The translations under genes and the position numbers were made by a program. Below are positions 2,656 through 52,503 of a stretch of 64,000 nucleotides of DNA, in pieces (positions within the stretch are counted from its first letter, which is position 1; each line of letters starts with the position of its first letter). The DNA comes from Anaerolineales bacterium (GTDB lineage Bacteria > Chloroflexota > Anaerolineae > Anaerolineales > Villigracilaceae). The DNA is taken from NCBI GenBank assembly GCA_014860745.1, contig JACZJC010000035.1:10354-74353 (forward strand), given 5' to 3'. The notes below the pieces were generated by a model. It had not been told where the DNA came from and made no database searches. It was given only the letters and a program-made list of their open reading frames with translations.

Positions 2656-3768
2656 ATGGACTGGAAACGTTTCGGCTTTATTGCCCTGATTATTATCGTC
2701 CTCTTTGGCACCGTTGTGATGATCGGACAGGTTAAACAGCCGCCCATCCTGATCATTACAAGCATGCTCGCCACCACCATTGCAGTCGCCACCCCGTTGA
2801 CGTTGGGCGCGCTTTCCGGCGTCTATTGCGAACGGGCGGGTGTGGTCAATATCGGCATTGAAGGCATGATGCTCACAGCAGCGTTCTTTGGCTGGCTGGG
2901 TGCAATTTACATGTTCAACGTTTTTGGAAGGGACGCCGGCCTCAGCATTGCCCTCGGCGTATTTTTTGCCATCCTTTCCGGTTTGTTGATGGCTCTGCTT
3001 CATGCGGTGCTTTCGATCACCTTCAAAGTGGACCAGATCATCGGCGGGACTGTGATCAATATCCTCGCGGTCGGGCTGACCGGCTTCCTGAACCGTCAAT
3101 TGTTCTTTGGCAAAGGCAGTGTCTTCGGTGGCTCTGTTCCAGGTTCTCCCGGTGTTTTGCCCACCATTCACATCCCTCTTACTGAGATTTTCACTCCGAT
3201 TTGCGGCGCGTCCGCTTCCTGCCTCCAAAACCTCATCGCCATCAATCGCGTGTTCGACCAAAAACCGATCGCGATCAGTGCCATTCTGCTTGTGTTCTTC
3301 TCTCATTATGTATTGTTCAATACCCGCTGGGGGTTACGCACCCGTGCCGTGGGAGAACATCCCAAAGCGGCAGATACGGTTGGCATCAATGTCGTTAAAA
3401 TGCGTTATTTGAATGTACTTATCGGCGGTATGTTTGCCGGTTTGGCTGGCGCATATTTCACCATAGAATCTGTCCCCTCCTTTGAACCCCTGCTTACGAA
3501 TGGTCGCGGGTTCATATCGCTCGCTGCAATGATTTTCGGAAACTGGACACCCATCGGTGCATGGGCAGCCTCGCTTGTTTTCGGCGCATCGCAGGCATTG
3601 TTGATCAATATGCAAATCTTCCGCGATGTCATCCCCCCGCAATGGTCCTTCCTCCAGGAATCCTATATCGTGGGGCTTACACCGTATATTCTCACCATGT
3701 TCATCCTGACGGGCATTATCGGCAAGACCACGCCGCCTGCTGCTGATGGTGTTCCTTACGAGAAATAG
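2656..3768 (+). CDS. ABC transporter permease (second subunit)
   Basis: ERAGVVNIGIEGMM, RAVGEHP.AADTVGI and GRGFISLAAMIFG motifs. Confidence 0.9.
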   Translation: MDWKRFGFIALIIIVLFGTVVMIGQVKQPPILIITSMLATTIAVATPLTLGALSGVYCERAGVVNIGIEGMMLTAAFFGWLGAIYMFNVFGRDAGLSIALGVFFAILSGLLMALLHAVLSITFKVDQIIGGTVINILAVGLTGFLNRQLFFGKGSVFGGSVPGSPGVLPTIHIPLTEIFTPICGASASCLQNLIAINRVFDQKPIAISAILLVFFSHYVLFNTRWGLRTRAVGEHPKAADTVGINVVKMRYLNVLIGGMFAGLAGAYFTIESVPSFEPLLTNGRGFISLAAMIFGNWTPIGAWAASLVFGASQALLINMQIFRDVIPPQWSFLQESYIVGLTPYILTMFILTGIIGKTTPPAADGVPYEK

Positions 3769-20888: not shown

Positions 20889-22463
20889 CTATGGACTGCG
20901 CAGGTCGTAGATCACGTAACCGTCACCTTCGGCAAAAATCGGGAAGGCGGCCAGTTTTTGTTCGAGGAAGGGCTGGCGCTCGAGGTCGGTAAAGTCGGTG
21001 ACTACGAATAAATCTTTTTTGGCGGCAAGCTCGGCGAATTGATTCTCAAAATCGGTTTGCGCGCCGCGCAGATCGTTGTGGTAGAGCTGGTCACCGTAGG
21101 TGGGCCAGGAGGTGATGCTGCGCCAGCCCCAGTAGGCCAGGCGCGAGCCGTAATCCTGCGTGAGACCTGCCAGATTATACCCGTCCACCTTTCGGCTGAT
21201 CTCGGCCCACATCTGCGCTTCGGGGCGGTAGTCCACCGAGTTCATTTGGGTGCGAATGTTCCAGAGAGACATGAAGATTCCAGTAAGCAGTAAACAGTAA
21301 ACAGTGAAGCGAAGCCAGTGAGTTGTGGTAAGTTTGGCGAGTTGTTTGAAAAACAAATCTGCAAGAGGCGCAATGGATAAAGCCGCGATGGGAATCAAGG
21401 GCAGAGAGTAGTAGTCGTGGGTGGAGATGTGATAGTTGAAGTAAATGCCAAAGAGGGCGTACCCAGCCCACAGCGAAAGAATGAAGCGGCGCCCTTTATC
21501 CACAAAGAAAAAGATTCCCAGCAGGGCAAACATCAAAGGGATGCCGCCGATGACGAGGTTGAGCATGTTCACCCATCCAAAGTAATACGATGGATTTAGA
21601 AAATAGGCGGGGATGAAACGTCCGCCGAACTGCTGGCCGAGATAACCCGCGATGAAGACTCCGTAGATGAAGTAGGCCGCGCCGGGCAGGATGCCAAGAA
21701 CGGTCATGACGTAAATTTGGGGCTGTTTCAACACCTCAGGCAGTGACCGACGCCCAAGCAGAAGCGCGCCAACACCGCCGCCGATGATGAAGAAGGCCGC
21801 GACGAATTTGATGAAGATGGCGAAACCGCCGAAGAGACCGGCGAGGATGGCGAAGGACCAACTTTTTAACCACGAAGGGTCACGAAGGGTCACAACGTTT
21901 TGATTCCTTTGTGTTCCTTTGTCTCCTTCGTGGTCGAGAGGTTTGTTTAATGTGTTCGCCCACTCGTAGATTGCCCACCAGAAGAGGATGATGAGCATGA
22001 CCATGAGCGGATCGGGTTGGAAGGAGCGGCTGGCGGTGACGGCATACGGGAGGAAAAGGTAGAAGGCTGTGGCGGCGAGGGCGCCGTCGGTGGAGGTGAG
22101 TCTGCGGGCGAGTAAAAAGAGGAAGACCGCGCCGATGACCCAAAAGGCGGAGGAATAGATGCGCGAGACCCAAAGTTGTTCGCCTGTGAATTTGTAGGTG
22201 AAGGCGACGATGCGTTCGAAGAATTCAGGCTCCACCGAGGCGCGGAATTTCCACTGCTGAATGGCAAAACTGCGCTCGTCGGCTGGGGCATCGGTGAGGG
22301 ATTGGTAGTACATGCCGCGGGCTTTGAGGGCCGAGAGCAATTGCCGCGTGGGGTGAAAATCGAGCGGCAGATCGGTGAGGTCGTACAGGCGGATGGCGAG
22401 GCCGAGGCCAAGGATGAGGATGAGGGCGGCTATCGAGGTGAAAAATGAGGGGCGCTCGTTCAT
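20889..22463 (-). CDS. ArnT/PMT-like (GT39/GT83) GT-C glycosyltransferase, paralog A
   Basis: DFHPTRQ first-loop motif, SRSFQPDPLM, HDYY; clearly paralogous to 30673-32205. Confidence 0.75.
   Translation of the reverse strand: MNERPSFFTSIAALILILGLGLAIRLYDLTDLPLDFHPTRQLLSALKARGMYYQSLTDAPADERSFAIQQWKFRASVEPEFFERIVAFTYKFTGEQLWVSRIYSSAFWVIGAVFLFLLARRLTSTDGALAATAFYLFLPYAVTASRSFQPDPLMVMLIILFWWAIYEWANTLNKPLDHEGDKGTQRNQNVVTLRDPSWLKSWSFAILAGLFGGFAIFIKFVAAFFIIGGGVGALLLGRRSLPEVLKQPQIYVMTVLGILPGAAYFIYGVFIAGYLGQQFGGRFIPAYFLNPSYYFGWVNMLNLVIGGIPLMFALLGIFFFVDKGRRFILSLWAGYALFGIYFNYHISTHDYYSLPLIPIAALSIAPLADLFFKQLAKLTTTHWLRFTVYCLLLTGIFMSLWNIRTQMNSVDYRPEAQMWAEISRKVDGYNLAGLTQDYGSRLAYWGWRSITSWPTYGDQLYHNDLRGAQTDFENQFAELAAKKDLFVVTDFTDLERQPFLEQKLAAFPIFAEGDGYVIYDLRSP
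21869..21934. repeat. 66-bp palindromic repeat inserted in frame in GT paralog A
   Basis: Terminal 10-bp inverted repeat accacgaagg...ccttcgtggt with internal cacgaaggg repeats; length is 22 codons. Confidence 0.7.
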
Positions 22464-22505
22464 GGGAGTGGTTATTGTATCGTGAATGGAGGGAATCGGA
22501 GAATT

Positions 22506-22610
22506 GGAGGTTAGTGATTGGAGATTGGAGAATGGTGATTGGAGATTAGGGATTGGAGATCGGAGATTAGAGATTAGGGATTGGAGATTGGAGATTGGAG
22601 ATTGGTAATT
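22506..22610. repeat. Tandem heptamer tract, 15 degenerate units, consensus GGAGATT
   Basis: Direct reading ggaggtt agtgatt ggagatt ggagaat ... ggagatt ggtaatt. Confidence 0.9.
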
Positions 22611-22634
22611 GAAAGTTAGGGAGAATTTTCTGTG

Positions 22635-22663
22635 TTGACCCTCCCTATGCGAGTGCGTATAAT
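22635..22663 (+). promoter_or_regulatory. Near-consensus sigma70 promoter driving the cassette array (Pc-like)
   Basis: TTGACC (22635-40) - 17 bp - TATAAT (22658-63), about 70 bp upstream of the first GTT core site. Confidence 0.8.
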
Positions 22664-22666
22664 TTG

Positions 22667-22741
22667 CTTATGCGATTTTAAGCTATTGCCGCCATCCATA
22701 AGCACTTATACGGAATGCGGCACTCTAATCCCGTGTTAGCC
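22667..22741 (+). other. attI-like recombination site
   Basis: CTCTAATCCCGTG|TTAGCC aligns with attI1 CCCTAAAACAAAG|TTRRRY, with CTAA at the same distance from G|TT; upstream direct repeats cttatgcg (22667) and cttatacg (22705). Confidence 0.6.
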
Positions 22742-22798
22742 CGTTTCGTTGAACAGATTCATCTCTGCAAACATTAACTCATATGGGAGATAAGTAAA

Positions 22799-23236
22799 AT
22801 GCTTGAAAAAGTAGATTGGTTCAGTTTTGTCTTTGGCGGTGTTGTTATTGCCTTTATTGTAAATATTATTTCCAGCTTTGCGCAGCCAAAAATTGAAACT
22901 TGGCTAGAGAAATATAATGCTAAGCGTCGGAATAAAAATACATCAATTCGGAAGGCTTTCGAAGCGGAAGTACAACGATTATCGGACAATAACCATGAAG
23001 AACTAGTAATAATTCAAACTAGAAATTTCTTCTCCATCTTATATTGTACAAGTATTGTCTTTGTGATGGGATTTCTTATAACAGCAATTATAACTACACA
23101 AAGTGCAACAAAATACTTTCTTTTAGTGGGTGAGTTAATTGCAAGTATATTTTCGATTCTACTAATGCAAAAAGTTAATAAAATCAGTCAGTTATTAAAG
23201 GCTGTCGGCAATCAAAAGAATAGACCAAAGGTCTAA
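22799..23236 (+). CDS. Cassette 1: small membrane protein, unknown function
   Basis: AT-rich ORF with 3 hydrophobic segments lying between attI and attC1. Confidence 0.65.
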   Translation: MLEKVDWFSFVFGGVVIAFIVNIISSFAQPKIETWLEKYNAKRRNKNTSIRKAFEAEVQRLSDNNHEELVIIQTRNFFSILYCTSIVFVMGFLITAIITTQSATKYFLLVGELIASIFSILLMQKVNKISQLLKAVGNQKNRPKV

Positions 23237-23259
23237 ATGTTTCCACCAAATCATGAACG

Positions 23260-23375
23260 GGCTAACACAGCGTGCGGCACGCTTCGCCGCGCTTCGTGTT
23301 CTGCTCCAAGCAGAGTCCACGCCTGCCCCAGCGCCAACGTCCGTAGGGCAAGTCCGCGAACGCAAACTGTTGGGC
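23260..23375 (+). repeat. attC site 1
   Basis: Left box (aacg)ggctaac, right box gttgggc; 116 bp; contains the ctgctc-caagcagagtcc module shared with the other sites. Confidence 0.8.
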
Positions 23376-23410
23376 TGTTCCTTGCATAAATATCTAAAAA
23401 AGGGAAAACG

Positions 23411-24385
23411 ATGTCGCAAAATATTTGTCCATCCTGCAAAAAAGAATTAGTCAACGATTTTCGATTTTGTCCCCATTGTGGATACGACTTGAAAAAGCCA
23501 GTTGTTTGTTCAAACTGCCAATATTCTAATGAAGGCAATTCTAAGTTTTGCCAAGAATGTGGCACGCCTCTCTATTCAACAAGCAATACAAAAGCAGAAA
23601 CAAAGAATGCAGAAGCAGAACCAGAAATCCTCGTAGGAATGGAACCTCCTTCAAAAAATGGAATTACGATTGAATTTCCATTTTCAACCGCACAGTCTTT
23701 TGATTTTGCAGTTGAAGCCGCTAAAAAATTTCCAACCTTTAAGAAATTTGGGCAAGATAAAAAGGCTCTATATCGAATTACCATCCAGCCTAATGAAATG
23801 GAGACTCTCGCAGAATTATTAGAGCATTTAAAAGGCTGGAGAAAAAGAACCGTTTATGTTAATGGGGAAAAAGTAACATGGGATTCTGTTTTTGCTTTTG
23901 GATGGTGTCACGAAAAGAAAAAAGCAAGTTTCAAACCTGAGTTCTATTGTTTTGGCTATGAAAATGAATATCAACTTAATGCTTGGGGTTGTATTCAGGC
24001 TAATTTATCGTTTACGGAAAATGCTCAATGGTTTTGTTGGGGAAAATGGCTGAGCGATAAAGGCGATTGGAAGTTTGACAAAGAACGTATTTTTCACGAA
24101 TTACAAAAGACGCTGTATCAATATAGGTTTTGTCCTGCATTACGCCCCGAACTAATTCAGGATGTTCTCAATGCGCTTCCAGATGTAGTAAATCCAACAA
24201 AAGATAAAAACTGGAAATTCGTTGAGAGATGGGGTGAAGAAAATTCTCCTGGTCTAACCGTGACTGTAAATCGTTTTGGCTTCAATGAAAAAGTTGTGAT
24301 GAAAGGCGTTTCGCCGAATGGGCAAGGCGCAATAAAAGAAATGGCAAAGCGCATGAAATTTCCGTTATCATATATAGGTAGATAA
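23411..24385 (+). CDS. Cassette 2: double zinc-ribbon protein with unknown C-terminal domain
   Basis: CPSC..CPHC and CSNC..CQEC zinc-ribbon pairs; AAAGGG SD. Confidence 0.75.
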   Translation: MSQNICPSCKKELVNDFRFCPHCGYDLKKPVVCSNCQYSNEGNSKFCQECGTPLYSTSNTKAETKNAEAEPEILVGMEPPSKNGITIEFPFSTAQSFDFAVEAAKKFPTFKKFGQDKKALYRITIQPNEMETLAELLEHLKGWRKRTVYVNGEKVTWDSVFAFGWCHEKKKASFKPEFYCFGYENEYQLNAWGCIQANLSFTENAQWFCWGKWLSDKGDWKFDKERIFHELQKTLYQYRFCPALRPELIQDVLNALPDVVNPTKDKNWKFVERWGEENSPGLTVTVNRFGFNEKVVMKGVSPNGQGAIKEMAKRMKFPLSYIGR

Positions 24386-24393
24386 AAAACACA

Positions 24394-24553
24394 GCCTAAC
24401 AAAGCGTGTACCCCGTCATCGCGCTGCGTGTGGTACGCTTCGCAGTCAAGAATTTCGCGCAACGTGGCTTCGAGTTTTTTTCTGCTCACAAGCAGAGTCC
24501 CCTCTCCAGCGCCACAGCCCGTAGGGCAAGTCCGCGGACGCAAACCGTTAGGC
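24394..24553 (+). repeat. attC site 2
   Basis: gcctaac ... gttaggc, 160 bp, shared internal modules. Confidence 0.8.
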
Positions 24554-24603
24554 AACCCGTCTTGATATAATAATACTCATCAAATTGAATGGTAGGAAAT
24601 GCA

Positions 24604-24882
24604 ATGCCAATCAAAGTTAGTGTATCTAATCAAACAGCCCATTTCCTTGACATGGTATTTACGTTAGGGTTGGGAATCGTCAGTTTGTATATCTCCATTT
24701 TTGTTGCCTCAGCCACTCGGCAAGAATCAGTATTCCTTGTTTTAGCAAGCATTGTTCACTTTTATTTTTTCAAAAAAGCCTTCCAGAATGAAGTAAACCT
24801 TTGGAGTTGGTCATTACCTACTATAATTTGGGCTATCCCTGCTTATTATTCTATTTGGATGATTATCAAATATCTTTTGTAA
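24604..24882 (+). CDS. Cassette 3: small membrane protein
   Basis: Three hydrophobic helices; AGGA SD before ATG 24604 (alternative start 24589). Confidence 0.6.
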   Translation: MPIKVSVSNQTAHFLDMVFTLGLGIVSLYISIFVASATRQESVFLVLASIVHFYFFKKAFQNEVNLWSWSLPTIIWAIPAYYSIWMIIKYLL

Positions 24883-25090
24883 GTAGTTCTCGGCTTGCCT
24901 TTTTTCTGTATAGTACTAGTAAAAGTAGTAAGTTACCTTTTTTCAGCTGGCGTTTTGGTTAGTATATAAAATTCCCGTGTTCAGCAAGCGTTTCAGTTGG
25001 CCATATTTTTTGGATTTTGGTAATAACAAAGTCGCGGGTAAAATCCAGTCTAGTTTGCGGTGTTGTCTTTTTTCTGCCAGCGGGCTGGTT

Positions 25091-25257
25091 GCCTACCAAA
25101 GCGTGCACCTCGTCTTCGCGGCGTGCAGCACCTACGGCAAACAGTTTTTTGGCTTCGAGTTTTCTCTGCTCCCAAGCAGAGTCCAAGCCCCAGCGCCAAA
25201 GTCCCGTAGGGCAAATCCATGATAGCAATACCCCTTCGGGGCACAAGCCCGTTGGGT
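25091..25257 (+). repeat. attC site 3 (left box mutated AAC to ACC)
   Basis: gcctacc ... gttgggt, 167 bp. Confidence 0.75.
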
Positions 25258-25308
25258 GGCTGGCACCGAAGTGCAAAAACCATCTTCAATCAAAGTAGGT
25301 AATCGAAA

Positions 25309-25803
25309 ATGATTTACTTTATTCGTGGCAAAGAAAGCGGCAATATCAAGATTGGCTTTTCGATTAACCCTGATAAGCGTAAATCTAATTTGCAAACAGC
25401 CCATTACGAAGAACTTGAGTTTATCGGGATTATGAATGGTTCTTTGGATGATGAAGCAAGAATAAAGAAGATGTTTTCAGAATTCAATATTCGGGGTGAA
25501 TGGTATCGCCCAGTTCGAGAAGTAATGGATTATGTAAAAAAGAATGCCAACAAGCCAAAAATGAATATTGTTTCGAGTCTTGGAAACGATGAATACAGAA
25601 TCATACTTGCTGAACCCATTAAATACACAATGAATTTTTTCCTTTTGGCAGGTACTCACAATATGAGAGTTTTGAGTGATAAAGAATTAGAAATGGTATT
25701 TGGTATTGAAGGAAAAAAGAAAGTTTTATTGAGTTGGCTAGAAAGTCTTCAAGTTGTCACCAAAGAAGCGATGGATGAGTTTGAATCATTGATGACGGAC
25801 TAG
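25309..25803 (+). CDS. Cassette 4: GIY-YIG superfamily nuclease (T5orf172/MUG113-like)
   Basis: N-terminal IYFI..IKIGFS.NP.KR..LQT..E.....F....RGEW pattern. Confidence 0.75.
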   Translation: MIYFIRGKESGNIKIGFSINPDKRKSNLQTAHYEELEFIGIMNGSLDDEARIKKMFSEFNIRGEWYRPVREVMDYVKKNANKPKMNIVSSLGNDEYRIILAEPIKYTMNFFLLAGTHNMRVLSDKELEMVFGIEGKKKVLLSWLESLQVVTKEAMDEFESLMTD

Positions 25804-25928
25804 CATTTTGTTTTACAGTTTTTGGGAAGATTATTTTTTGTCCTTGCCAAAGGTCAAGGTAAATGTAATAATTTTGTCAAAATGGCGGTGTCGTTTTTTT
25901 TAGCCAGCGAGTCTTGCAGTCAAACGCC

Positions 25929-26069
25929 GCCCAACAAAGCGGCATCCCGTCTTCGTTTCGTGTCAAGCATTTCGCGAAAGGTGGTTTCGAGTTTTTTCTG
26001 CTCCCAAGCAGAGTCCATGCCCGAGTGTCAAAGCCTCCTTGAGGGGATGATATCGCAAGCCCGTTGGGC
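25929..26069 (+). repeat. attC site 4
   Basis: gcccaac ... gttgggc, 141 bp. Confidence 0.8.
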
Positions 26070-26105
26070 TGCAAAACAATATCTGTAAGTGAAAGGAAGA
26101 TAATC

Positions 26106-26516
26106 ATGAATATGAAACGCGTAGCAGCATTTATATATGCAATTGTTTCCACAGGCGTCGTTGCCTTTCAAATCGCATTGGCGGCTGGCGCACCTTTGGG
26201 TGCGTATGCGATGGGGGGTGCTTTTCCAGGTCAGTTTCCACCCGCACTTCGCATCGCAGCACTCGTCCAAGCGGCATTGCTTGTTGGAATGGTTTTTGTT
26301 GTGTTGGCCCGGGCAGGGCTCATCTTACCTGGTTGGTCGCGAGTGACACGTTGGCTCGTCTGGTTCGTCGTGGCGTTTGCCGCGTTGAGTTTATTCCTCA
26401 ATTTAATTACACCAAGTGCAAGTGAGCGAGCCATTTGGGCGCCCACAGCACTGCTCTTGCTGTTAAGCAGTGCTGTAGTGGCTTTCAGTAAATCTACAGA
26501 ACCCCCTGCTCGATAA
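26106..26516 (+). CDS. Cassette 5a: four-helix membrane protein
   Basis: Hydrophobic ORF with GAP.G..AMGG..PG motif; GAAAGGA SD before ATG 26106. Confidence 0.7.
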   Translation: MNMKRVAAFIYAIVSTGVVAFQIALAAGAPLGAYAMGGAFPGQFPPALRIAALVQAALLVGMVFVVLARAGLILPGWSRVTRWLVWFVVAFAALSLFLNLITPSASERAIWAPTALLLLLSSAVVAFSKSTEPPAR

Positions 26517-26580
26517 CGCATGCAGCGCGCATCATTCGCCCAAAATTAAATTTCGGGCGAATGATCAAGGAGTAAAAGCC

Positions 26581-27201
26581 ATGACAATCAGTAAATGGGC
26601 TGGGGTTGCATCGTTTTTACTAGCAGTGTCATTTGTTGTTGCACCATTGATCTACCTAACTGGAAATTTGCGAGATACCCTTGGCGTATTTACATATAAT
26701 CTGGCAGATTTTCTTTATGGCCCAGTTGTATCAGCCAGTCTAATCACTGTGGTCTATGTGCTTCGTGAACGCATCGGCGAGAGTGCGTTTCGGCGCATGG
26801 ACCTGGCGCTCCTGGCGGCTGTCCTTTCAGCAGCAGGCATGGCGGCAGTCGCTTTTATCCGTGCATCTAATCGCCACTACCATTTGATACATCCTGAGCT
26901 GCATTTGGAAAACTCTACAACTGTCCTCATCGTTTGGACTACGCTTGTGACAGGCGTGAACGCGATCGGATTTCATTTTCTAGGATGGACGTTTGTGTTA
27001 CTTGGCTCAGCCAGCTGGACATCTCGCCTCTTTCCCCGCCCGTTAAATGTATTGTATTTTCTAGCAGGTGTCTCGTCCCTGTTTGTTTATCTGTTTCCAG
27101 AACTCGAAGGATTTGTTTTATTGCTTGGCACTATAATAGGTGTCTGGCAGGGTATTTTGCTCTGGAATCATGACACCTTCCAATACGCAAAAGCAGGCTG
27201 A
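26581..27201 (+). CDS. Cassette 5b: polytopic membrane protein (DUF4386-like)
   Basis: About six TM helices; AAGGAG SD; stop codon overlaps the attC5 left box. Confidence 0.7.
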   Translation: MTISKWAGVASFLLAVSFVVAPLIYLTGNLRDTLGVFTYNLADFLYGPVVSASLITVVYVLRERIGESAFRRMDLALLAAVLSAAGMAAVAFIRASNRHYHLIHPELHLENSTTVLIVWTTLVTGVNAIGFHFLGWTFVLLGSASWTSRLFPRPLNVLYFLAGVSSLFVYLFPELEGFVLLLGTIIGVWQGILLWNHDTFQYAKAG

Positions 27202-27325
27202 CACAGCGTGCAGCCCGTCTTCGCTTCGCTCCGCGCCCTTGCAGGATGCTGCCTGCCGCTGGTGACTTCCCCTTCGCTGCGGGGATGATATCGCAATACC
27301 CCTTCGGGGCACAAGCCCGTTGGGC
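27196..27325 (+). repeat. attC site 5 (degenerate left box GGCTGAC)
   Basis: ggctgacacagcgtgc (compare attC1 ggctaacacagcgtgc) ... gcccgttgggc; 130 bp. Confidence 0.7.
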
Positions 27326-27371
27326 AGTTCCTTGCATAAAAACCATCCATTTTGAATAGAAAATCATTTTC

Positions 27372-28010
27372 ATGGCATTAATCATTTTCGACTTTGACGG
27401 CGTTCTTGCGGATACTCTTAATGACTTAATTCAGTTTGGACAGGAAGTTTGTGACGAATTAGGTATAAAACACGCGGTAAATAAAGATGACCTGAGCAAT
27501 CTTGAGATTATGTCCTTCGCAACATTTGGGCGGGCGTGCGAAGTCCCTGAACATCTTGTGGATGAATTTGTCCAAAGGTGCTTGAAACGTTTCGCCGAAA
27601 AGGAATCCCCGCCTGCCATTTTCAATGGGTTGAGCGATATTGTCAGAAATTTTGCCATTAAGAACAAGCTTGCCATTATCACAACCAATTCATCGCAAAA
27701 TGTAAATGCTTTTCTTATCGAACACGGTCTGGATGAATGTATTCATGCAGTGTTCGGAATCGATATTCCTGGTTCCAAGGCACAGAAAATATCGATCGCA
27801 CGGGATCAGTTTTCAGCGGATTCAGAGCGGGAATCGGTGTTTATGATTGGCGATTCGTTAAGTGATGTTCTTGCAGCAAAAGAAGCGTCAGTTACCAGCA
27901 TTGCAGTTACATGGGGGCATCAGAGTTTGGAACATTTACTTCGCGGTGATCCCGATTATGTGGTTCATTATCCGCTGGATCTTATTGAGGTGATTGAAAG
28001 AACAGCATAA
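27372..28010 (+). CDS. Cassette 6: HAD family hydrolase (phosphoglycolate phosphatase-like)
   Basis: DFDGVLAD motif I, TTN motif II, IGDS..D motif IV. Confidence 0.88.
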   Translation: MALIIFDFDGVLADTLNDLIQFGQEVCDELGIKHAVNKDDLSNLEIMSFATFGRACEVPEHLVDEFVQRCLKRFAEKESPPAIFNGLSDIVRNFAIKNKLAIITTNSSQNVNAFLIEHGLDECIHAVFGIDIPGSKAQKISIARDQFSADSERESVFMIGDSLSDVLAAKEASVTSIAVTWGHQSLEHLLRGDPDYVVHYPLDLIEVIERTA

Positions 28011-28057
28011 GAGAGGCGTCTTTTCACTTGTCATGGCACTATATGAAAAACCGCCAA

Positions 28058-28210
28058 ACAAATCACCCTGGGCAATCGGCAGGATAATGCAGCCTTCCGA
28101 AACCATGCCGGGACGCACATGCCTTCTGCCATGAAGTGGTATATTACATATAAGAATCGTATCCCCCTCCCGCTCCCCTGCGAGGCAGATATCGCAAACG
28201 GACGAGCCGC
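28058..28210 (+). repeat. Degenerate attC remnant
   Basis: aaccgccaaacaaa resembles the expected left box (aactgcccaac); gatatcgcaa module at the 3' end; no intact GTT box. Confidence 0.35.
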
Positions 28211-28233
28211 ATAATTAGAATGGATGAACTTTC

Positions 28234-29100
28234 ATGAAGAAAACAGACCTTGTTTCACTGATCGTCTTTCCTTTTTTGATATTCGTAGGGGCTCTCTTTG
28301 CCTATTCAGGAAGCCGGGGAGGGAGCTCGGTTTATGGGCTTCCCCTATTTGCATGGTTGGTGGGGCTGACCTTTCTGATCCAATGGCTGGTCTTTATCCC
28401 AGCCTTTCTACTGCAAACCGAAAAATTTTTCGATCTAACGGGCAGTCTCACGTATATTTCCGTGACAATTATTGCGGTATTTTTCAGTGCAGGCATTAAT
28501 GGAAGATCCATCCTCCTGGCTTTCCTTGTGGTGGTCTGGGCAATCCGCCTGGGAACGTTTCTATTCACCCGAATCAGAAAAGCAGGAAAGGATGATCGGT
28601 TTGATGAGATAAAGCCTTCCTTTATCCGCTTCCTAAATGTTTGGACCATCCAGGGCTTGTGGGTAGCATTGACAATGGGCGCTGCATTGGCCGCCATTAC
28701 TGCCGCCTACCGAAAAGATTTGGATTGGTTCGCCGTCATCGGCTTCGTGGTATGGATTTTTGGATTTGCCATTGAGGTCGCAGCCGACTCTCAAAAAAGT
28801 CGCTTCAACGCAAACCCGGAAAACAAGGGAAAGTTTATCCGAACAGGGCTATGGTCACGATCCCGCCACCCCAACTACTTTGGTGAGATCGTCCTCTGGG
28901 TTGGCATTGCGGTTATCGCATTCCCCGTCCTGCAAGGCTGGCAGTGGGTCACCCTGATTTCCCCGGTTTTTGTCGCACTGCTTATCACCCGGGTAAGTGG
29001 AGTTCCCCAGCTTGAAACCAAGGCGGATAAAAAATGGGGCGGGCAGGAAGATTATGAGGCCTATAAGAAGAGAACGCCTGTACTGATTCCCCGATTGTGA
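28234..29100 (+). CDS. DUF1295 / steroid 5-alpha-reductase-like membrane protein (distal cassette)
   Basis: WAIRLG.FLF.RI, GLWSRSRHPNYFGE motif. Confidence 0.85.
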   Translation: MKKTDLVSLIVFPFLIFVGALFAYSGSRGGSSVYGLPLFAWLVGLTFLIQWLVFIPAFLLQTEKFFDLTGSLTYISVTIIAVFFSAGINGRSILLAFLVVVWAIRLGTFLFTRIRKAGKDDRFDEIKPSFIRFLNVWTIQGLWVALTMGAALAAITAAYRKDLDWFAVIGFVVWIFGFAIEVAADSQKSRFNANPENKGKFIRTGLWSRSRHPNYFGEIVLWVGIAVIAFPVLQGWQWVTLISPVFVALLITRVSGVPQLETKADKKWGGQEDYEAYKKRTPVLIPRL

Positions 29101-29248
29101 TTCCAATCGAAAGCGGCATGCAGCAGAGGGGGGCAACCGCAATGACCAATCATTGTCCACGCCCATTTGGTTGTCGAATGCCGGGTAAATCTTCTCGAAA
29201 TTCAAAAATAGATGGAACTTCCCACCCAGGAAAGGAACTGTACCATCC

Positions 29249-29632
29249 ATGAGTCCAGCGTCCATGTCACGATTGGAATCAGCGACCCGTATTGTCCTTG
29301 AATTCAATGAAGCCTTCAACCGCCACGATGTGGCAGGGATGATGCATTTGATGAGCGACAACTGCATCTTCCAGAACACTTCCCCAGCTCCCGACGGCAC
29401 GGCCTACGCGGGGAAGGAAGCGGTCACACAGTTTTGGGAAGACTTCTTCCGCGAGTCGCCGCAAGCCCGCATCGAGATCGAGGAAATCTTCGGCTTTGGG
29501 AATCGGTGCGTGATGCGCTGGACCTATAAATGGGTGGACGCGGCGGGGCAAAATGGACATGTGCGGGGAGTTGATATATTCCAGATTCGGGACGGGCTGA
29601 TCTATGAAAAGTTGTCCTACGTTAAGGGTTAA
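29249..29632 (+). CDS. SnoaL/NTF2-like family protein (distal cassette)
   Basis: F.EAFNRHDV pattern, G..AV..FW, RGVDIF.IRDG.I.EK. Confidence 0.8.
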   Translation: MSPASMSRLESATRIVLEFNEAFNRHDVAGMMHLMSDNCIFQNTSPAPDGTAYAGKEAVTQFWEDFFRESPQARIEIEEIFGFGNRCVMRWTYKWVDAAGQNGHVRGVDIFQIRDGLIYEKLSYVKG

Positions 29633-29639
29633 TCTATCT

Positions 29640-30569
29640 TTACTTTTTATATTGGTTCGCCCTGTCCTTTAAGACCACTTCCCTCAATTTCTCCAGACCC
29701 ATTAGATTCAAAACAGCAGAAATAATAATATTCATCCGCGCCAGAGCTGTTGGCGGGTGGATGAGAAGCGCGCGCCCCCATGCGGAAAGTGCTTTTGAAG
29801 GCTGGCCGCCGTCGAGCAGGTAACGCGCATCCACGCGGTGGGCTGAGGCGCGCGCGCGGCGGTTCACTTTTGAAAGCATAGGCACAAGATTATCATCTTG
29901 TGAAATCGTTTCTAAAATTTTGAAGGCTTCGCGGCCAAATTCAGCGGCCTTGGCGCGGTTCTTGGCCTCGGGATGGTAGCGCGCCGCAGACCAGGTCTGG
30001 TCCACGTGCAAAATTTTTCCATGCCGGGCGATTTGAATCCACAAAAGGTGGTCGAGGAGAAAATGGAATGATGAATCGAGCCCATTTGTTTTTTGCAGGG
30101 CAGAGCGGCGCATAAATACGGCGGGCTGACCGATGATCTGAAAACACAACAAATCTTCGAGGGTCAATGGTTTGTAATTCAGGGTATTGAAAGTTTGGCC
30201 ATTCTCATCCACAGCGAGCATGTTTCCATAAACCAATACCACATCGGGGTTTTCATCAAAGATTTTCACCGCCGCGCTGACCGTTCCGGGGAGATAATAA
30301 TCATCCGAATTGAGCCAGGCCACAATTTCGCCAGAGGCGCGGGCAAAGCCTTTGTTGATCGCGTCCGCCTGCCCGCGGTCTTGTTCTGAAACCCAATACG
30401 CCAATTTACTTTCGTATTTTTTTATGATGTCTACACAGCCATCGGTGGAAGCGCCGTCCACAATGATGTATTCGACGCGCGGATAATCCTGATTCAAAAC
30501 AGACAGGATCGTCTGCTCGAGATAGGCGGATTGATTGTACGAAGGGGTGATGATGGAAACGAAGGTCAT
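29640..30569 (-). CDS. Glycosyltransferase family 2
   Basis: VSIITPSYNQ, VDGASTDG, WLNSDD; the longer ORF-track N-terminus reads through a repeat. Confidence 0.88.
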   Translation of the reverse strand: MTFVSIITPSYNQSAYLEQTILSVLNQDYPRVEYIIVDGASTDGCVDIIKKYESKLAYWVSEQDRGQADAINKGFARASGEIVAWLNSDDYYLPGTVSAAVKIFDENPDVVLVYGNMLAVDENGQTFNTLNYKPLTLEDLLCFQIIGQPAVFMRRSALQKTNGLDSSFHFLLDHLLWIQIARHGKILHVDQTWSAARYHPEAKNRAKAAEFGREAFKILETISQDDNLVPMLSKVNRRARASAHRVDARYLLDGGQPSKALSAWGRALLIHPPTALARMNIIISAVLNLMGLEKLREVVLKDRANQYKK

Positions 30570-30578
30570 AATTATTTT

Positions 30579-30668
30579 ATGTCGTTGCGAGGGCGCTCTT
30601 GTTCTTCGCCCGAAGCAATCCCCTGTTGCGAGAAGATTGCTTCGGGACGAACACCCTCGCAATGACAT
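30579..30668. repeat. Palindromic repeat, GTCATTGCGAG...GAAGCAATC...GATTGCTTC...CTCGCAATGAC family, copy 1
   Basis: Terminal IR atgtcgttgcgaggg/ccctcgcaatgacat and inner IR ccgaagcaatc/gattgcttcgg. Confidence 0.85.
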
Positions 30669-50853: not shown

Positions 50854-52503
50854 TTATTCCTTCAACAAAAAATCTCCACCCTCCAACACCCCGCTCAAAA
50901 TTACTTTTAAAGATTCCGACCTCGCCAACTCCTCCAGCTCGAACGGCTTCAATCTCGCCTGTGTCGTACGGACGGACGGCTCAAGAAACTCCCCAAACGG
51001 CAAAGACGTTCTGAACAACTGATAATATAAAAATCTGCGCGCATTGCGTTTGAACTCAAGCGGGACATCAAGCGAATCAGCCGCTAAAAATTCTTTCATC
51101 TTTCTTCTTACATCTTTAATCGTCTGCGGAAAGAACACCGTGGGATATTGCGTGAAGCGCGCCTTGCCCGCGCATAGCACCGCCGCGCCCATGATCGAAG
51201 CTTCCAAACCAATCGTCGAGTTATAGACCATCACGAACTTCGATTTCTGTATCAGCTCATACGAACTCAACGATTCGCGCGGACTCACAAACACAACATT
51301 CGCCTCTTTATCCACACCGCGGCTTGCCACCCAACCCTCCACAGTCTCACGGCTGGATTTTCTCACCCGCAATTCATCCGGATGCGCGCGGATGACAAAC
51401 AGCGTTTCAGGGTGTGAGCGGATTTCCTCCAGCACCAGATCCAGCCAATCGAACATATCTTCAAAAACCGTATTTGCATGAGGCTGGCTGGTATCGAAGA
51501 TGACGTTGGTAAAGATGGGCACGATCTGTTTGAAACCCGCGGCCTTTTTCAAAAACGACTCGTCGAGTCCCTTCATGTCCGCCCAAAATCTGATGCCCGC
51601 CATCGTGAAGTCCCCTTGAAAACGCTTTGCAAGATAGGCATCCAGTTTGGCGTTTTGTTCGGTGTTCATTTCAAACTCATCAGGGATGCGGATCGGGTAG
51701 GCCGTTGCCTCGCCATCTGTGAAATAGGCGCTGGCTGGCTGCAATCCCACTTCATGCGTGATGACTCGCAGTCCGCGTTTTTGGGCGACCCAGCGCGCCG
51801 TCGCTTCGGGGAAGAATTGTCCGTTGAAGACCACCACCGCGCGCGGATTCGTCTCATCCAGAAATTTCGAAAACTTCTGCGCCACATTCCACGCGGATAG
51901 GATATATTCCCGCAAAAGATAACGGGTGTTTTCGTCATCATTCAAATGGTGGATGCGCAGGACCCATCGCAAGCCGGGCAGGCATAATGCACCGAGGGGG
52001 ATTGTCTGCCATTCAAAAGTCATCAGGTCTTGCAAAGAAAGTTGCGAGAGGCAAGATGCGAGTTGCAGGTCAGATTGAAAATCAAACCAATTTATATGAG
52101 ACGTAGTAGCGACTTCAGTCGCCTCTTTGTGATAACGACTGAAGTCGTTACTACGCAATCCCGTGTAAAGCGTCTTCGATTGATAGACACACGATTTGCA
52201 TGGCATCTCCTTATGCGGATCACCCCGATTCGTCCCAAGCACACAATGACTCATGCCAGAGTTACACGCGAAATACACCACAGGGATTCCCTGCAAACGG
52301 AACGCCCACGAAGCCAGCAGGTGAAACCCGCTATTCCATGAAAGATCGTCGATCCCCGTGGAAGCTTTGAAGAAGACCACTGGCGCACCGTTAGACTGCG
52401 GCTCTTTGCGGGAAACTTCCCTCGCGATAGATGCAATCTTGAGATTATTGAACCTGCGGACGAGTCCGCGCTTGATGCGTTGGGTGAAGAATTCCTTTAT
52501 CAT
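50854..52503 (-). CDS. Capsule polysaccharide synthesis/modification protein (KpsS-like), candidate CMP-sugar transferase
   Basis: IRAHPDE, YNSTIGLEA motifs; located beside the NeuA/NeuB genes. Confidence 0.65.
   Translation of the reverse strand: MIKEFFTQRIKRGLVRRFNNLKIASIAREVSRKEPQSNGAPVVFFKASTGIDDLSWNSGFHLLASWAFRLQGIPVVYFACNSGMSHCVLGTNRGDPHKEMPCKSCVYQSKTLYTGLRSNDFSRYHKEATEVATTSHINWFDFQSDLQLASCLSQLSLQDLMTFEWQTIPLGALCLPGLRWVLRIHHLNDDENTRYLLREYILSAWNVAQKFSKFLDETNPRAVVVFNGQFFPEATARWVAQKRGLRVITHEVGLQPASAYFTDGEATAYPIRIPDEFEMNTEQNAKLDAYLAKRFQGDFTMAGIRFWADMKGLDESFLKKAAGFKQIVPIFTNVIFDTSQPHANTVFEDMFDWLDLVLEEIRSHPETLFVIRAHPDELRVRKSSRETVEGWVASRGVDKEANVVFVSPRESLSSYELIQKSKFVMVYNSTIGLEASIMGAAVLCAGKARFTQYPTVFFPQTIKDVRRKMKEFLAADSLDVPLEFKRNARRFLYYQLFRTSLPFGEFLEPSVRTTQARLKPFELEELARSESLKVILSGVLEGGDFLLKE
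52102..52155. repeat. 54-bp GTAG-type REP inserted in frame in the KpsS-like gene
   Basis: cgtagtagcgacttcagtcg - 14 nt - cgactgaagtcgttactacg (20-bp stem, one G-T pair); 18 codons RSNDFSRYHKEATEVATT. Confidence 0.8.

Follow-up and report, generated by a model that had tools for sequence, protein, structure and literature searches.

The sequence analysed here is a stretch of 64,000 nucleotides (nt) from an Anaerolineales bacterium of the family Villigracilaceae (Chloroflexota; contig JACZJC010000035.1), hereafter the window, and the subject of this work is a block of 7.2 kb within it that has the form of an integron cassette array with no integrase gene beside it. The block holds nine open reading frames (ORFs) on the plus strand and lies between two minus-strand glycosyltransferase genes of a glycan locus. 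One of them, of the PMT_2 family (20889-22463; Pfam PF13231), is conserved as the anchor beside which intI, the integrase gene, stands in relatives; the other, of the GT2 family (29640-30668), is convergent with the array, closes it and constitutes the conserved distal boundary of a hotspot. Upstream of PMT_2, where relatives have intI, the window holds a spacer of 335 bp. Its PMT_2-proximal part, at the place of the deleted intI (22464-22634), includes a tandem repeat (GGAGATT)x15 at 22498-22605 (period 7, 15.3 copies according to Tandem Repeats Finder), which sits between the PMT_2 start codon and a candidate cassette promoter (Pc). This promoter, TTGACC-N17-TATAAT (22635-22663, plus strand), matches the sigma-70 consensus at 11 of 12 positions and is followed by a putative eroded attI remnant, ACTTATAC...CACTCTAATCCCGT G|TTAGCC (22704-22741, plus strand), in which the crossover would fall between 22735 and 22736. 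A first-pass annotation of this stretch had described the promoter, an attI1-like core, and attC-like palindromes of 116-167 bp together with further remnants, and all of these were confirmed; the gene divergent from the array is indeed a glycosyltransferase. It had counted eight AT-rich ORFs separated by the palindromes. The plus-strand orientation stands, as do five attC sites plus remnants as separators; there are nine ORFs, however, of which only the first four are clearly AT-rich, and the fifth and sixth have no attC between them. The GC content is 0.38-0.41 at 23-26 kb, compared to about 0.53 in the flanks, and returns distally to 0.46-0.52.

The array, read on the plus strand throughout, starts with cassette 1 (22736-23369), which carries an ORF of 145 amino acids (aa; 22799-23236) with no Pfam match and the eroded attC1 (23260-23375). 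Cassette 2 (23370-24547) encodes a protein of 324 aa (23411-24385) with an N-terminal double zinc ribbon (Pfam DZR/Zn_Ribbon_1), followed by attC2 (24394-24553). In cassette 3 (24548-25251) an ORF of 97 aa (24589-24882), for which no family match was obtained, precedes a non-coding stretch of 200 nt and attC3 (25091-25257), and cassette 4 (25252-26063) encodes a protein of 164 aa (25309-25803) with a MUG113/T5orf172-type domain (Pfam PF13455), followed by attC4 (25929-26069). Cassette 5 (26064-27319) comprises two ORFs, of 136 aa (26106-26516) and 206 aa (26581-27201), and attC5 (27196-27325); both proteins are hydrophobic, as judged by reading their sequences, and the gap between the two genes contains no attC but a near-perfect palindrome (26531-26565; arms of 17 nt, loop of 1 nt), so that the pair resembles a single cassette of two genes with a hairpin inside it. 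Cassette 6 (27320-28215) contains the gene of a HAD-family hydrolase (27372-28010; Pfam HAD_2) and an attC remnant at about 28046-28215, and another genome has the same cassette start behind an attC end (L082; the comparison loci are designated by L and a number), with 85.6% nucleotide and 91% amino acid identity. The remaining segment (28216-29632) holds a DUF1295 gene (28234-29100) and a SnoaL-like gene (29249-29632), both assigned with Pfam, which are probably old cassettes without a recognisable attC. Homologs of the SnoaL-like protein (71-74% aa identity) also lie just beyond the last detectable attC in L011 (3767-4147), L046 (3699-4079) and L035 (3-353); the idea that SnoaL is a conserved platform-end gene was rejected, since its neighbours differ in each genome. 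A scan of the nine cassette proteins with PADLOC gave no match to a defence model. The cassette order is identical in both sequencing runs that contain the organism, SRR12686319 and SRR12686320. Two cassettes have in common a 22-nt leader that extends past R', GTTGGGC(T/A)GTTCCTTGCATAAA (23369-23390 and 27319-27340), and the start GTTGGGCAGTTCCT is also found after R' in arrays of several other genomes. As far as can be told from reading the translations, the first cassette of the intact integron of L121 (230-3380, minus strand) is an unusually large unit of two genes, about 3.2 kb in length, that resembles a DNA methyltransferase with a specificity subunit.

The assignment of this block to the integrons depends on its repeats. 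The five attC-like repeats (116, 160, 167, 141 and 130 nt) have repeat families in common, each with an RYYYAAC-like box at the start, GTTRRRY at the end and common internal blocks, and over 116 loci of species-representative genomes contain the core TGCTCNCAAGCAGAGTCC; almost all of these belong to metagenome-assembled genomes (MAGs) of Anaerolineales/Chloroflexota. Folding of the single window repeats, on both strands, gave no signal above that of shuffled sequences, and family covariation was used instead, with a test set of 90 full-length sites from outside the window. RNAalifold recovered only 7 pairs from the alignment of these sites and was replaced by a test of an explicitly specified attC structure, namely R''/R', L''/L' with a 3x2 internal loop and a single bulged base in the 5' arm, and a terminal hairpin. 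In this test pairing is found in 83.7% of cells, compared to 29-39% after sliding of the partners, and 247 double-sided changes were counted against 119 +/- 8 in shuffled alignments, a number reached by 0 of 500 shuffles. A covariance model (R1) built from the same 90 sites and run over the entire 64 kb with filters off found the five proposed attC sites as its only credible matches, all on the plus strand, with 30.8, 22.5 (partial), 38 (partial), 47.6 and 15.4 bits for attC1 to attC5 and E-values between 1.6e-10 and 0.03 (3e-6 for attC1, 0.03 for attC5). The match to attC2 covers the central part only, and in attC4 the inner helices are marked as non-canonical. The three full-length and two partial matches lie on one strand between 23.2 and 27.3 kb, at least two attC sites on one strand being what defines a cluster of attC sites lacking an integron integrase (CALIN). 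Judged by homology, it is right to regard the window repeats as attC sites. In some attC the conservation continues for about 45 nt on the upstream side of R'' (GGTGTCTTTTTT.AGCCAGCGAGTCTT...), which makes the conserved unit longer than a canonical attC; this extension occurs in the window at 25055-25090 and 25883-25928 and in L079 at 1263-1300 and 3721-3766.

The first-pass annotation had expected these spacers to score with attC models and to fold as bottom-strand hairpins with extrahelical bases; they score weakly, and they do not fold in this way. Canonical attC reach 110-152 bits, including sites on which the model was not trained (L121 101-244, L119 8097-8240, L123 3585-3719), compared to 15-48 bits for the window sites. 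In the bottom-strand fold, the pairs between the two 45-nt arms number 0, 8, 0, 0 and 0 for attC1 to attC5, against a canonical median of 24 (interquartile range 18-28, n = 78), and the long L stem with one bulged base that the canonical folds display is not present in the window sites, which thus have no functional-type L''/L' hairpin with extrahelical bases. The R''/R' boxes are intact in attC2 and attC4, and the R'' of attC1 is GGCTAAC; the near-invariant AAC of R'' is mutated to ACC in attC3 (GCCTACC) and to GAC in attC5 (GGCTGAC). In the remnant after the HAD gene (about 28046-28215) the R' core GTT has become GGA; this remnant contains repeat families D7 and D8 and gave no match to R1. 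A further weak remnant follows the DUF1295 gene at about 29136-29170. The window attC sites have inserted modules in common, and related modules occur in L023, L050 and L036 in copies without one end. A functional attC subfamily was considered and rejected, the modules being found elsewhere only in those incomplete copies, and we read the window sites as apparently defective variants, not as a working subfamily. Within L123 the scores drop from the proximal to the distal attC (110, 79 and 30 bits), and the single site of L119 scores 134 bits.

At the head of the array, TTGACC-N17-TATAAT is the best promoter-like match in the region to the sigma-70 consensus, which is assumed to be similar in Chloroflexota; promoter-like sites overall are not enriched (16 found, 11.9 +/- 3.3 expected). 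It lies upstream of the motif CTCTAATCCCGTG|TTAGCC (22723-22741, with the core G at 22735) and, by its sequence, would read into the cassettes as a Pc does. The pattern with which it can be compared comes from 11 intI-adjacent platforms of the clade, in which the intI start codon is followed by TTTC-TTGCCC-N17-TATAAT and, about 20 nt past the promoter, by an inverted repeat TTATACAGC...GCTGTATAA, a GC hairpin and an attI core that contains a second TTATACAGC, with the consensus TTATACAGC-N-CTGTATAAAC-NN-TA|GTTRGGC. This core stands beside 11 of the 15 integrases (IntIs) that are at least 74% identical to that of L121 and beside only 3 of 30 more distant ones, a clade-specific distribution such as an attI should have. 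In L121 the sequence after the attI GTT recurs after the next attC, which fixes the crossover, by reading. The window Pc sits at the position equivalent to TTGCCC-N17-TATAAT of these platforms, and both of its hexamers are identical in the window, L119 and L226. When the segment 22626-22756 was aligned with the intI-less allele of L119, the local score was 57 against 15.2 +/- 2.4 for shuffled sequences (z = 17.6); the corresponding Pc-attI similarities give z = 5.8 for L119 with L121, 6.9 for L121 with L123 and 5.4 for the window with L123.

The attI core of L119, AGCATAAACACTAGTTCGGC, has the consensus letter at about 15 of the 17 positions that are specified, and that of the window, CACTCTAATCCCGTGTTAGCC, which aligns with it column for column, at about 12 of 19. 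In the window the TA just 5' of G|TT has become GT and the proximal half-site CTGTATAA has become CTCTAATC. Counted from the printed alignment, the promoter half is identical to L119 at 46 of 60 positions (77%) and the attI half at about 53%; for comparison, the window and L119 agree at 67.6% of the four-fold degenerate sites of PMT_2, and no alignment could be made of a control intergenic region. It looks, therefore, as if Pc were maintained and attI were drifting on the window branch. The claim that the platform kept Pc and attI consequently stands for the promoter and for the homology of the segment with L119, and has to be amended for attI, which is probably present in eroded form. A second attI-like stretch, TCCCGTGTTCAGCAAGCGTTTCAGTTG, in the non-coding part of cassette 3 (24973-25007), was discarded as marginal, 10 of 300 shuffles being as good.

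No tyrosine recombinase was found on either side of the array, as the first-pass annotation had stated: tblastn over the 64 kb with IntI1 and XerD (used as probes only) and with the IntIs of L078, L079, L121, L148 and L151 gave a best E-value of about 0.7. The integrase-free span exceeds 22 kb on one side of the array and 34 kb on the other, so that the window lacks the adjacent integrase gene of a complete integron and shows the absence of a nearby integron integrase that characterises a CALIN. Neither tblastn nor blastn found a remnant of intI in the window spacer, to which the spacer of L121 can be aligned only up to about 22549. No IntI was found that came from the sequencing runs of the window; the three candidate proteins originated in other runs. 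Heptamer runs like (GGAGATT)n are also intergenic elsewhere in relatives (L141, L031, L119 and L121), and in L119 the junction of the intI deletion abuts such a run.

That intI had been lost from this platform, as was proposed from the sequence, is borne out by the relatives. In 27 Anaerolineales genomes PMT_2 has an ortholog (57-86% aa identity), and synteny extends over the glycan locus. L121/L146, whose PMT_2 is 86% identical to that of the window, L122 and L151 each carry a full-length integron integrase immediately upstream of PMT_2 and on its strand, and the Pc-attI region and the cassettes run away from the integrase gene on the opposite strand. The IntIs of the relatives pass the NCBIfam model TIGR02249 'integron integrase' with 409-454 bits (cutoff 265). 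The window, L119/L226 and L123 have no intI at this PMT_2 site. A tree calculated from six concatenated flanking proteins joins L119 with L121 (92.6%) and both with the window (85%), and places L122 and L123 on distant branches. Since L121, L122 and L151 have intI and L119, the window and L123 do not, the ancestor had intI here, and it was lost more than once. Orthologs of GT2 adjoin a variable gap in L124-L132, and in the clade L125-L130 the same gap contains conserved resident genes and no integron. A terminator-like inverted repeat in the gap between PMT_2 and intI of L121 (5030-5100) has matches of 80-82% on both strands at 52103-52160 of the window, which suggests a dispersed palindromic element of the repetitive extragenic palindromic (REP) type.

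Taken together, the region is in our judgement probably a degenerate sedentary chromosomal integron of a Villigracilis-like member of the Anaerolineales, a CALIN in the terms of IntegronFinder, which is decaying and most likely frozen. An ancestor would have carried a complete integron between the two glycosyltransferase genes, in which intI had the orientation of PMT_2, the intergenic region next to intI contained Pc and attI, and the cassettes lay on the opposite strand. In the lineage of the window intI would have been removed by a clean deletion, which left Pc and attI behind because Pc lies between intI and attI, outside intI. The array would since have been inherited as ordinary chromosomal DNA, with the predicted Pc probably still transcribing at least the proximal cassettes, and attI and attC would no longer have been maintained; the arm complementarity needed for the bottom-strand hairpin was lost, and the array is therefore most likely frozen. 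Several observations weigh against this reading. The direct Pc-attI similarity between the window and L121 is at noise level, and the homology emerged only through L119 and L123; a profile of genuine attI sites gives no match at E<=1 to the window, nor to L119, and the identity of the window attI would thus depend on positional homology through L119. The attC sites, with their common derived modules, could be an unusual variant instead of the product of random decay, and an IntI may be encoded elsewhere in the genome, the search having covered the 64 kb.

The last point leads to the other half of the earlier proposal, which had left the array as either frozen or served in trans. According to this alternative, the window holds a live orphan Pc-attI site of capture and expression on which an integrase encoded elsewhere in the same genome acts. 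For the window itself we consider this unlikely and a frozen array likely, the evidence for service in trans coming from the sister lineage L119/L226 and from L148. L226 is a metagenome contig, 90.8% identical to L119 over PMT_2 and Pc-attI and with the same deletion junction; when sequences were scanned for the pattern of the intI-less allele, the only matches were the contig of L119 itself among the genomes and, in metagenomes, this one contig. The two deletion alleles are nearly identical over about 120 nt and diverge exactly after the attI GTT (...ACTAGTT|CGGCG in L226 and ...ATTAGTT|AGGTT in L119). Behind it their first cassettes are unrelated, a 167-aa ORF of L226 standing in place of a 471-aa ORF of L119. 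The MAG of L119 also has an intact intI (90% identical to that of L121) and a canonical attI on another contig, L148. No cassette is common to the window and L119, L121 or L123, and half of the CALINs lie in genomes that encode an IntI (Cury et al., 2016; PMC4889954). Moreover, strong attI heads without intI in the 2-4 kb upstream occur in L044 (3797-3902; E 2e-18), L010 (5083-5194; 2e-16), L123 (4584-4702; 5e-16) and L047 (5130-5169), the first three being intI-less arrays that the profile of genuine sites matches at E 1e-16 to 1e-18, and orphan attI-headed arrays seem to be recurrent in Anaerolineales. On the other hand, the attI core of the window is degraded, arm pairing has been lost in all five of its attC sites, and no rearrangement was observed between the two sequencing runs. 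The difference between L119 and L226 could also come from homologous recombination that moved the deletion allele onto another array, and L148 is a contig of 1.2 kb that has nothing in common with the L119 junction, the binning of such short contigs being unreliable. Cassette exchange at an orphan attI is plausible in the sister lineage or the clade. The swap of the first cassette at the GTT in L119/L226, the intI of L148 and the orphan arrays L044, L010, L123 and L047 hint at a wider possibility, which we put forward tentatively and do not hold to be probable: that in Villigracilis-like Anaerolineales the intI-less Pc-attI platforms are working satellites for capture and expression, one integrase encoded elsewhere serving several arrays, and that the window is an old, fading example. 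L119 (7981-8038) and L226 (1018-1075, reverse complement) also contain a 58-nt element that is 100% identical in different cassette contexts and begins right after a CTAAC box in both.

Two further explanations would dispense with an integrase at this site. An array split by rearrangement from an integron elsewhere, or cassettes inserted at a secondary site, are documented routes to a CALIN (Cury et al., 2016; PMC4889954), and under either of them the locus would never have had an integrase of its own. Such an origin is very improbable here, given that three relatives on two distant branches have intI in precisely this place and orientation, that the head of the array is a Pc-attI segment homologous to the intI-proximal region, and that neither the ORF lists nor Pfam revealed an insertion sequence-like gene flanking the array. 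The repeats might also have nothing to do with integrons and represent REP-like or terminator palindromes that separate genes acquired horizontally, a view to which their folding lends itself, as single window repeats fold no better than shuffled sequence. It is effectively refuted by the homology of the repeats (E 1.6e-10 to 0.03) to a strongly covarying family that adjoins bona fide intI, by the correct placement and orientation of the R'' and R' boxes, and by the finding of the HAD cassette behind an attC end in another genome.

The degenerate integron that we favour can be set beside several known systems. Cury et al. (2016; PMC4889954) introduced the category of CALINs, described integrons from Chloroflexi, and proposed that loss of the integrase is one way in which CALINs originate. 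In their study 95% of CALINs had no recognisable intI pseudogene within the 10 kb searched to either side; they noted that for most integrons attI is not known, which precludes a search for it, and IntegronFinder groups features within 4 kb. The window resembles these CALINs in its cassettes, which are mostly of unknown function, and in the proposed origin. It differs in that the loss of intI is demonstrated by orthologous loci that still carry the gene, and in that the Pc-attI head is retained and could be recognised since the attI of this IntI clade can be defined; its attC are too eroded to fold, and membership was judged with the family model R1. The Xanthomonas integron at ilvD has been described as an ancestral platform whose activity was progressively lost (bioRxiv 10.1101/2025.06.18.660453). 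It is likewise a fixed-locus ancestral platform, with progressive integrase loss and lineage-specific arrays followed by vertical inheritance, whereas the window belongs to Chloroflexota, is anchored at PMT_2 in a glycan locus and has its intI cleanly deleted rather than truncated or inactivated in place. Closest are the sedentary integrons of Anaerolineales (L121/L146, L151, L078 and L079), which have the same attC family, attI type and promoter position, L121 and L151 also at the same chromosomal site; compared to them the window has neither intI nor high-scoring attC, and its attI is missing the GC hairpin and the distal TTATACAGC/GCTGTATAA inverted repeat.

Taken alone, the window is an ordinary fossil integron whose cassettes have turned into resident genes, and it fits the known pattern of CALINs. 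Together with its relatives it gives an ordered series for the origin of a CALIN in a poorly studied phylum, from the intact platform (L121, L151 and L122), through a recent loss of intI with attI and attC still intact (L119, L226 and L123), to an old loss with a conserved promoter and eroded attI and attC, as in the window. For one IntI clade of the Chloroflexota it also provides a usable consensus of attI and Pc, which lets the heads of orphan arrays be recognised and makes it possible to examine whether an integrase acts in trans on orphan attI sites.

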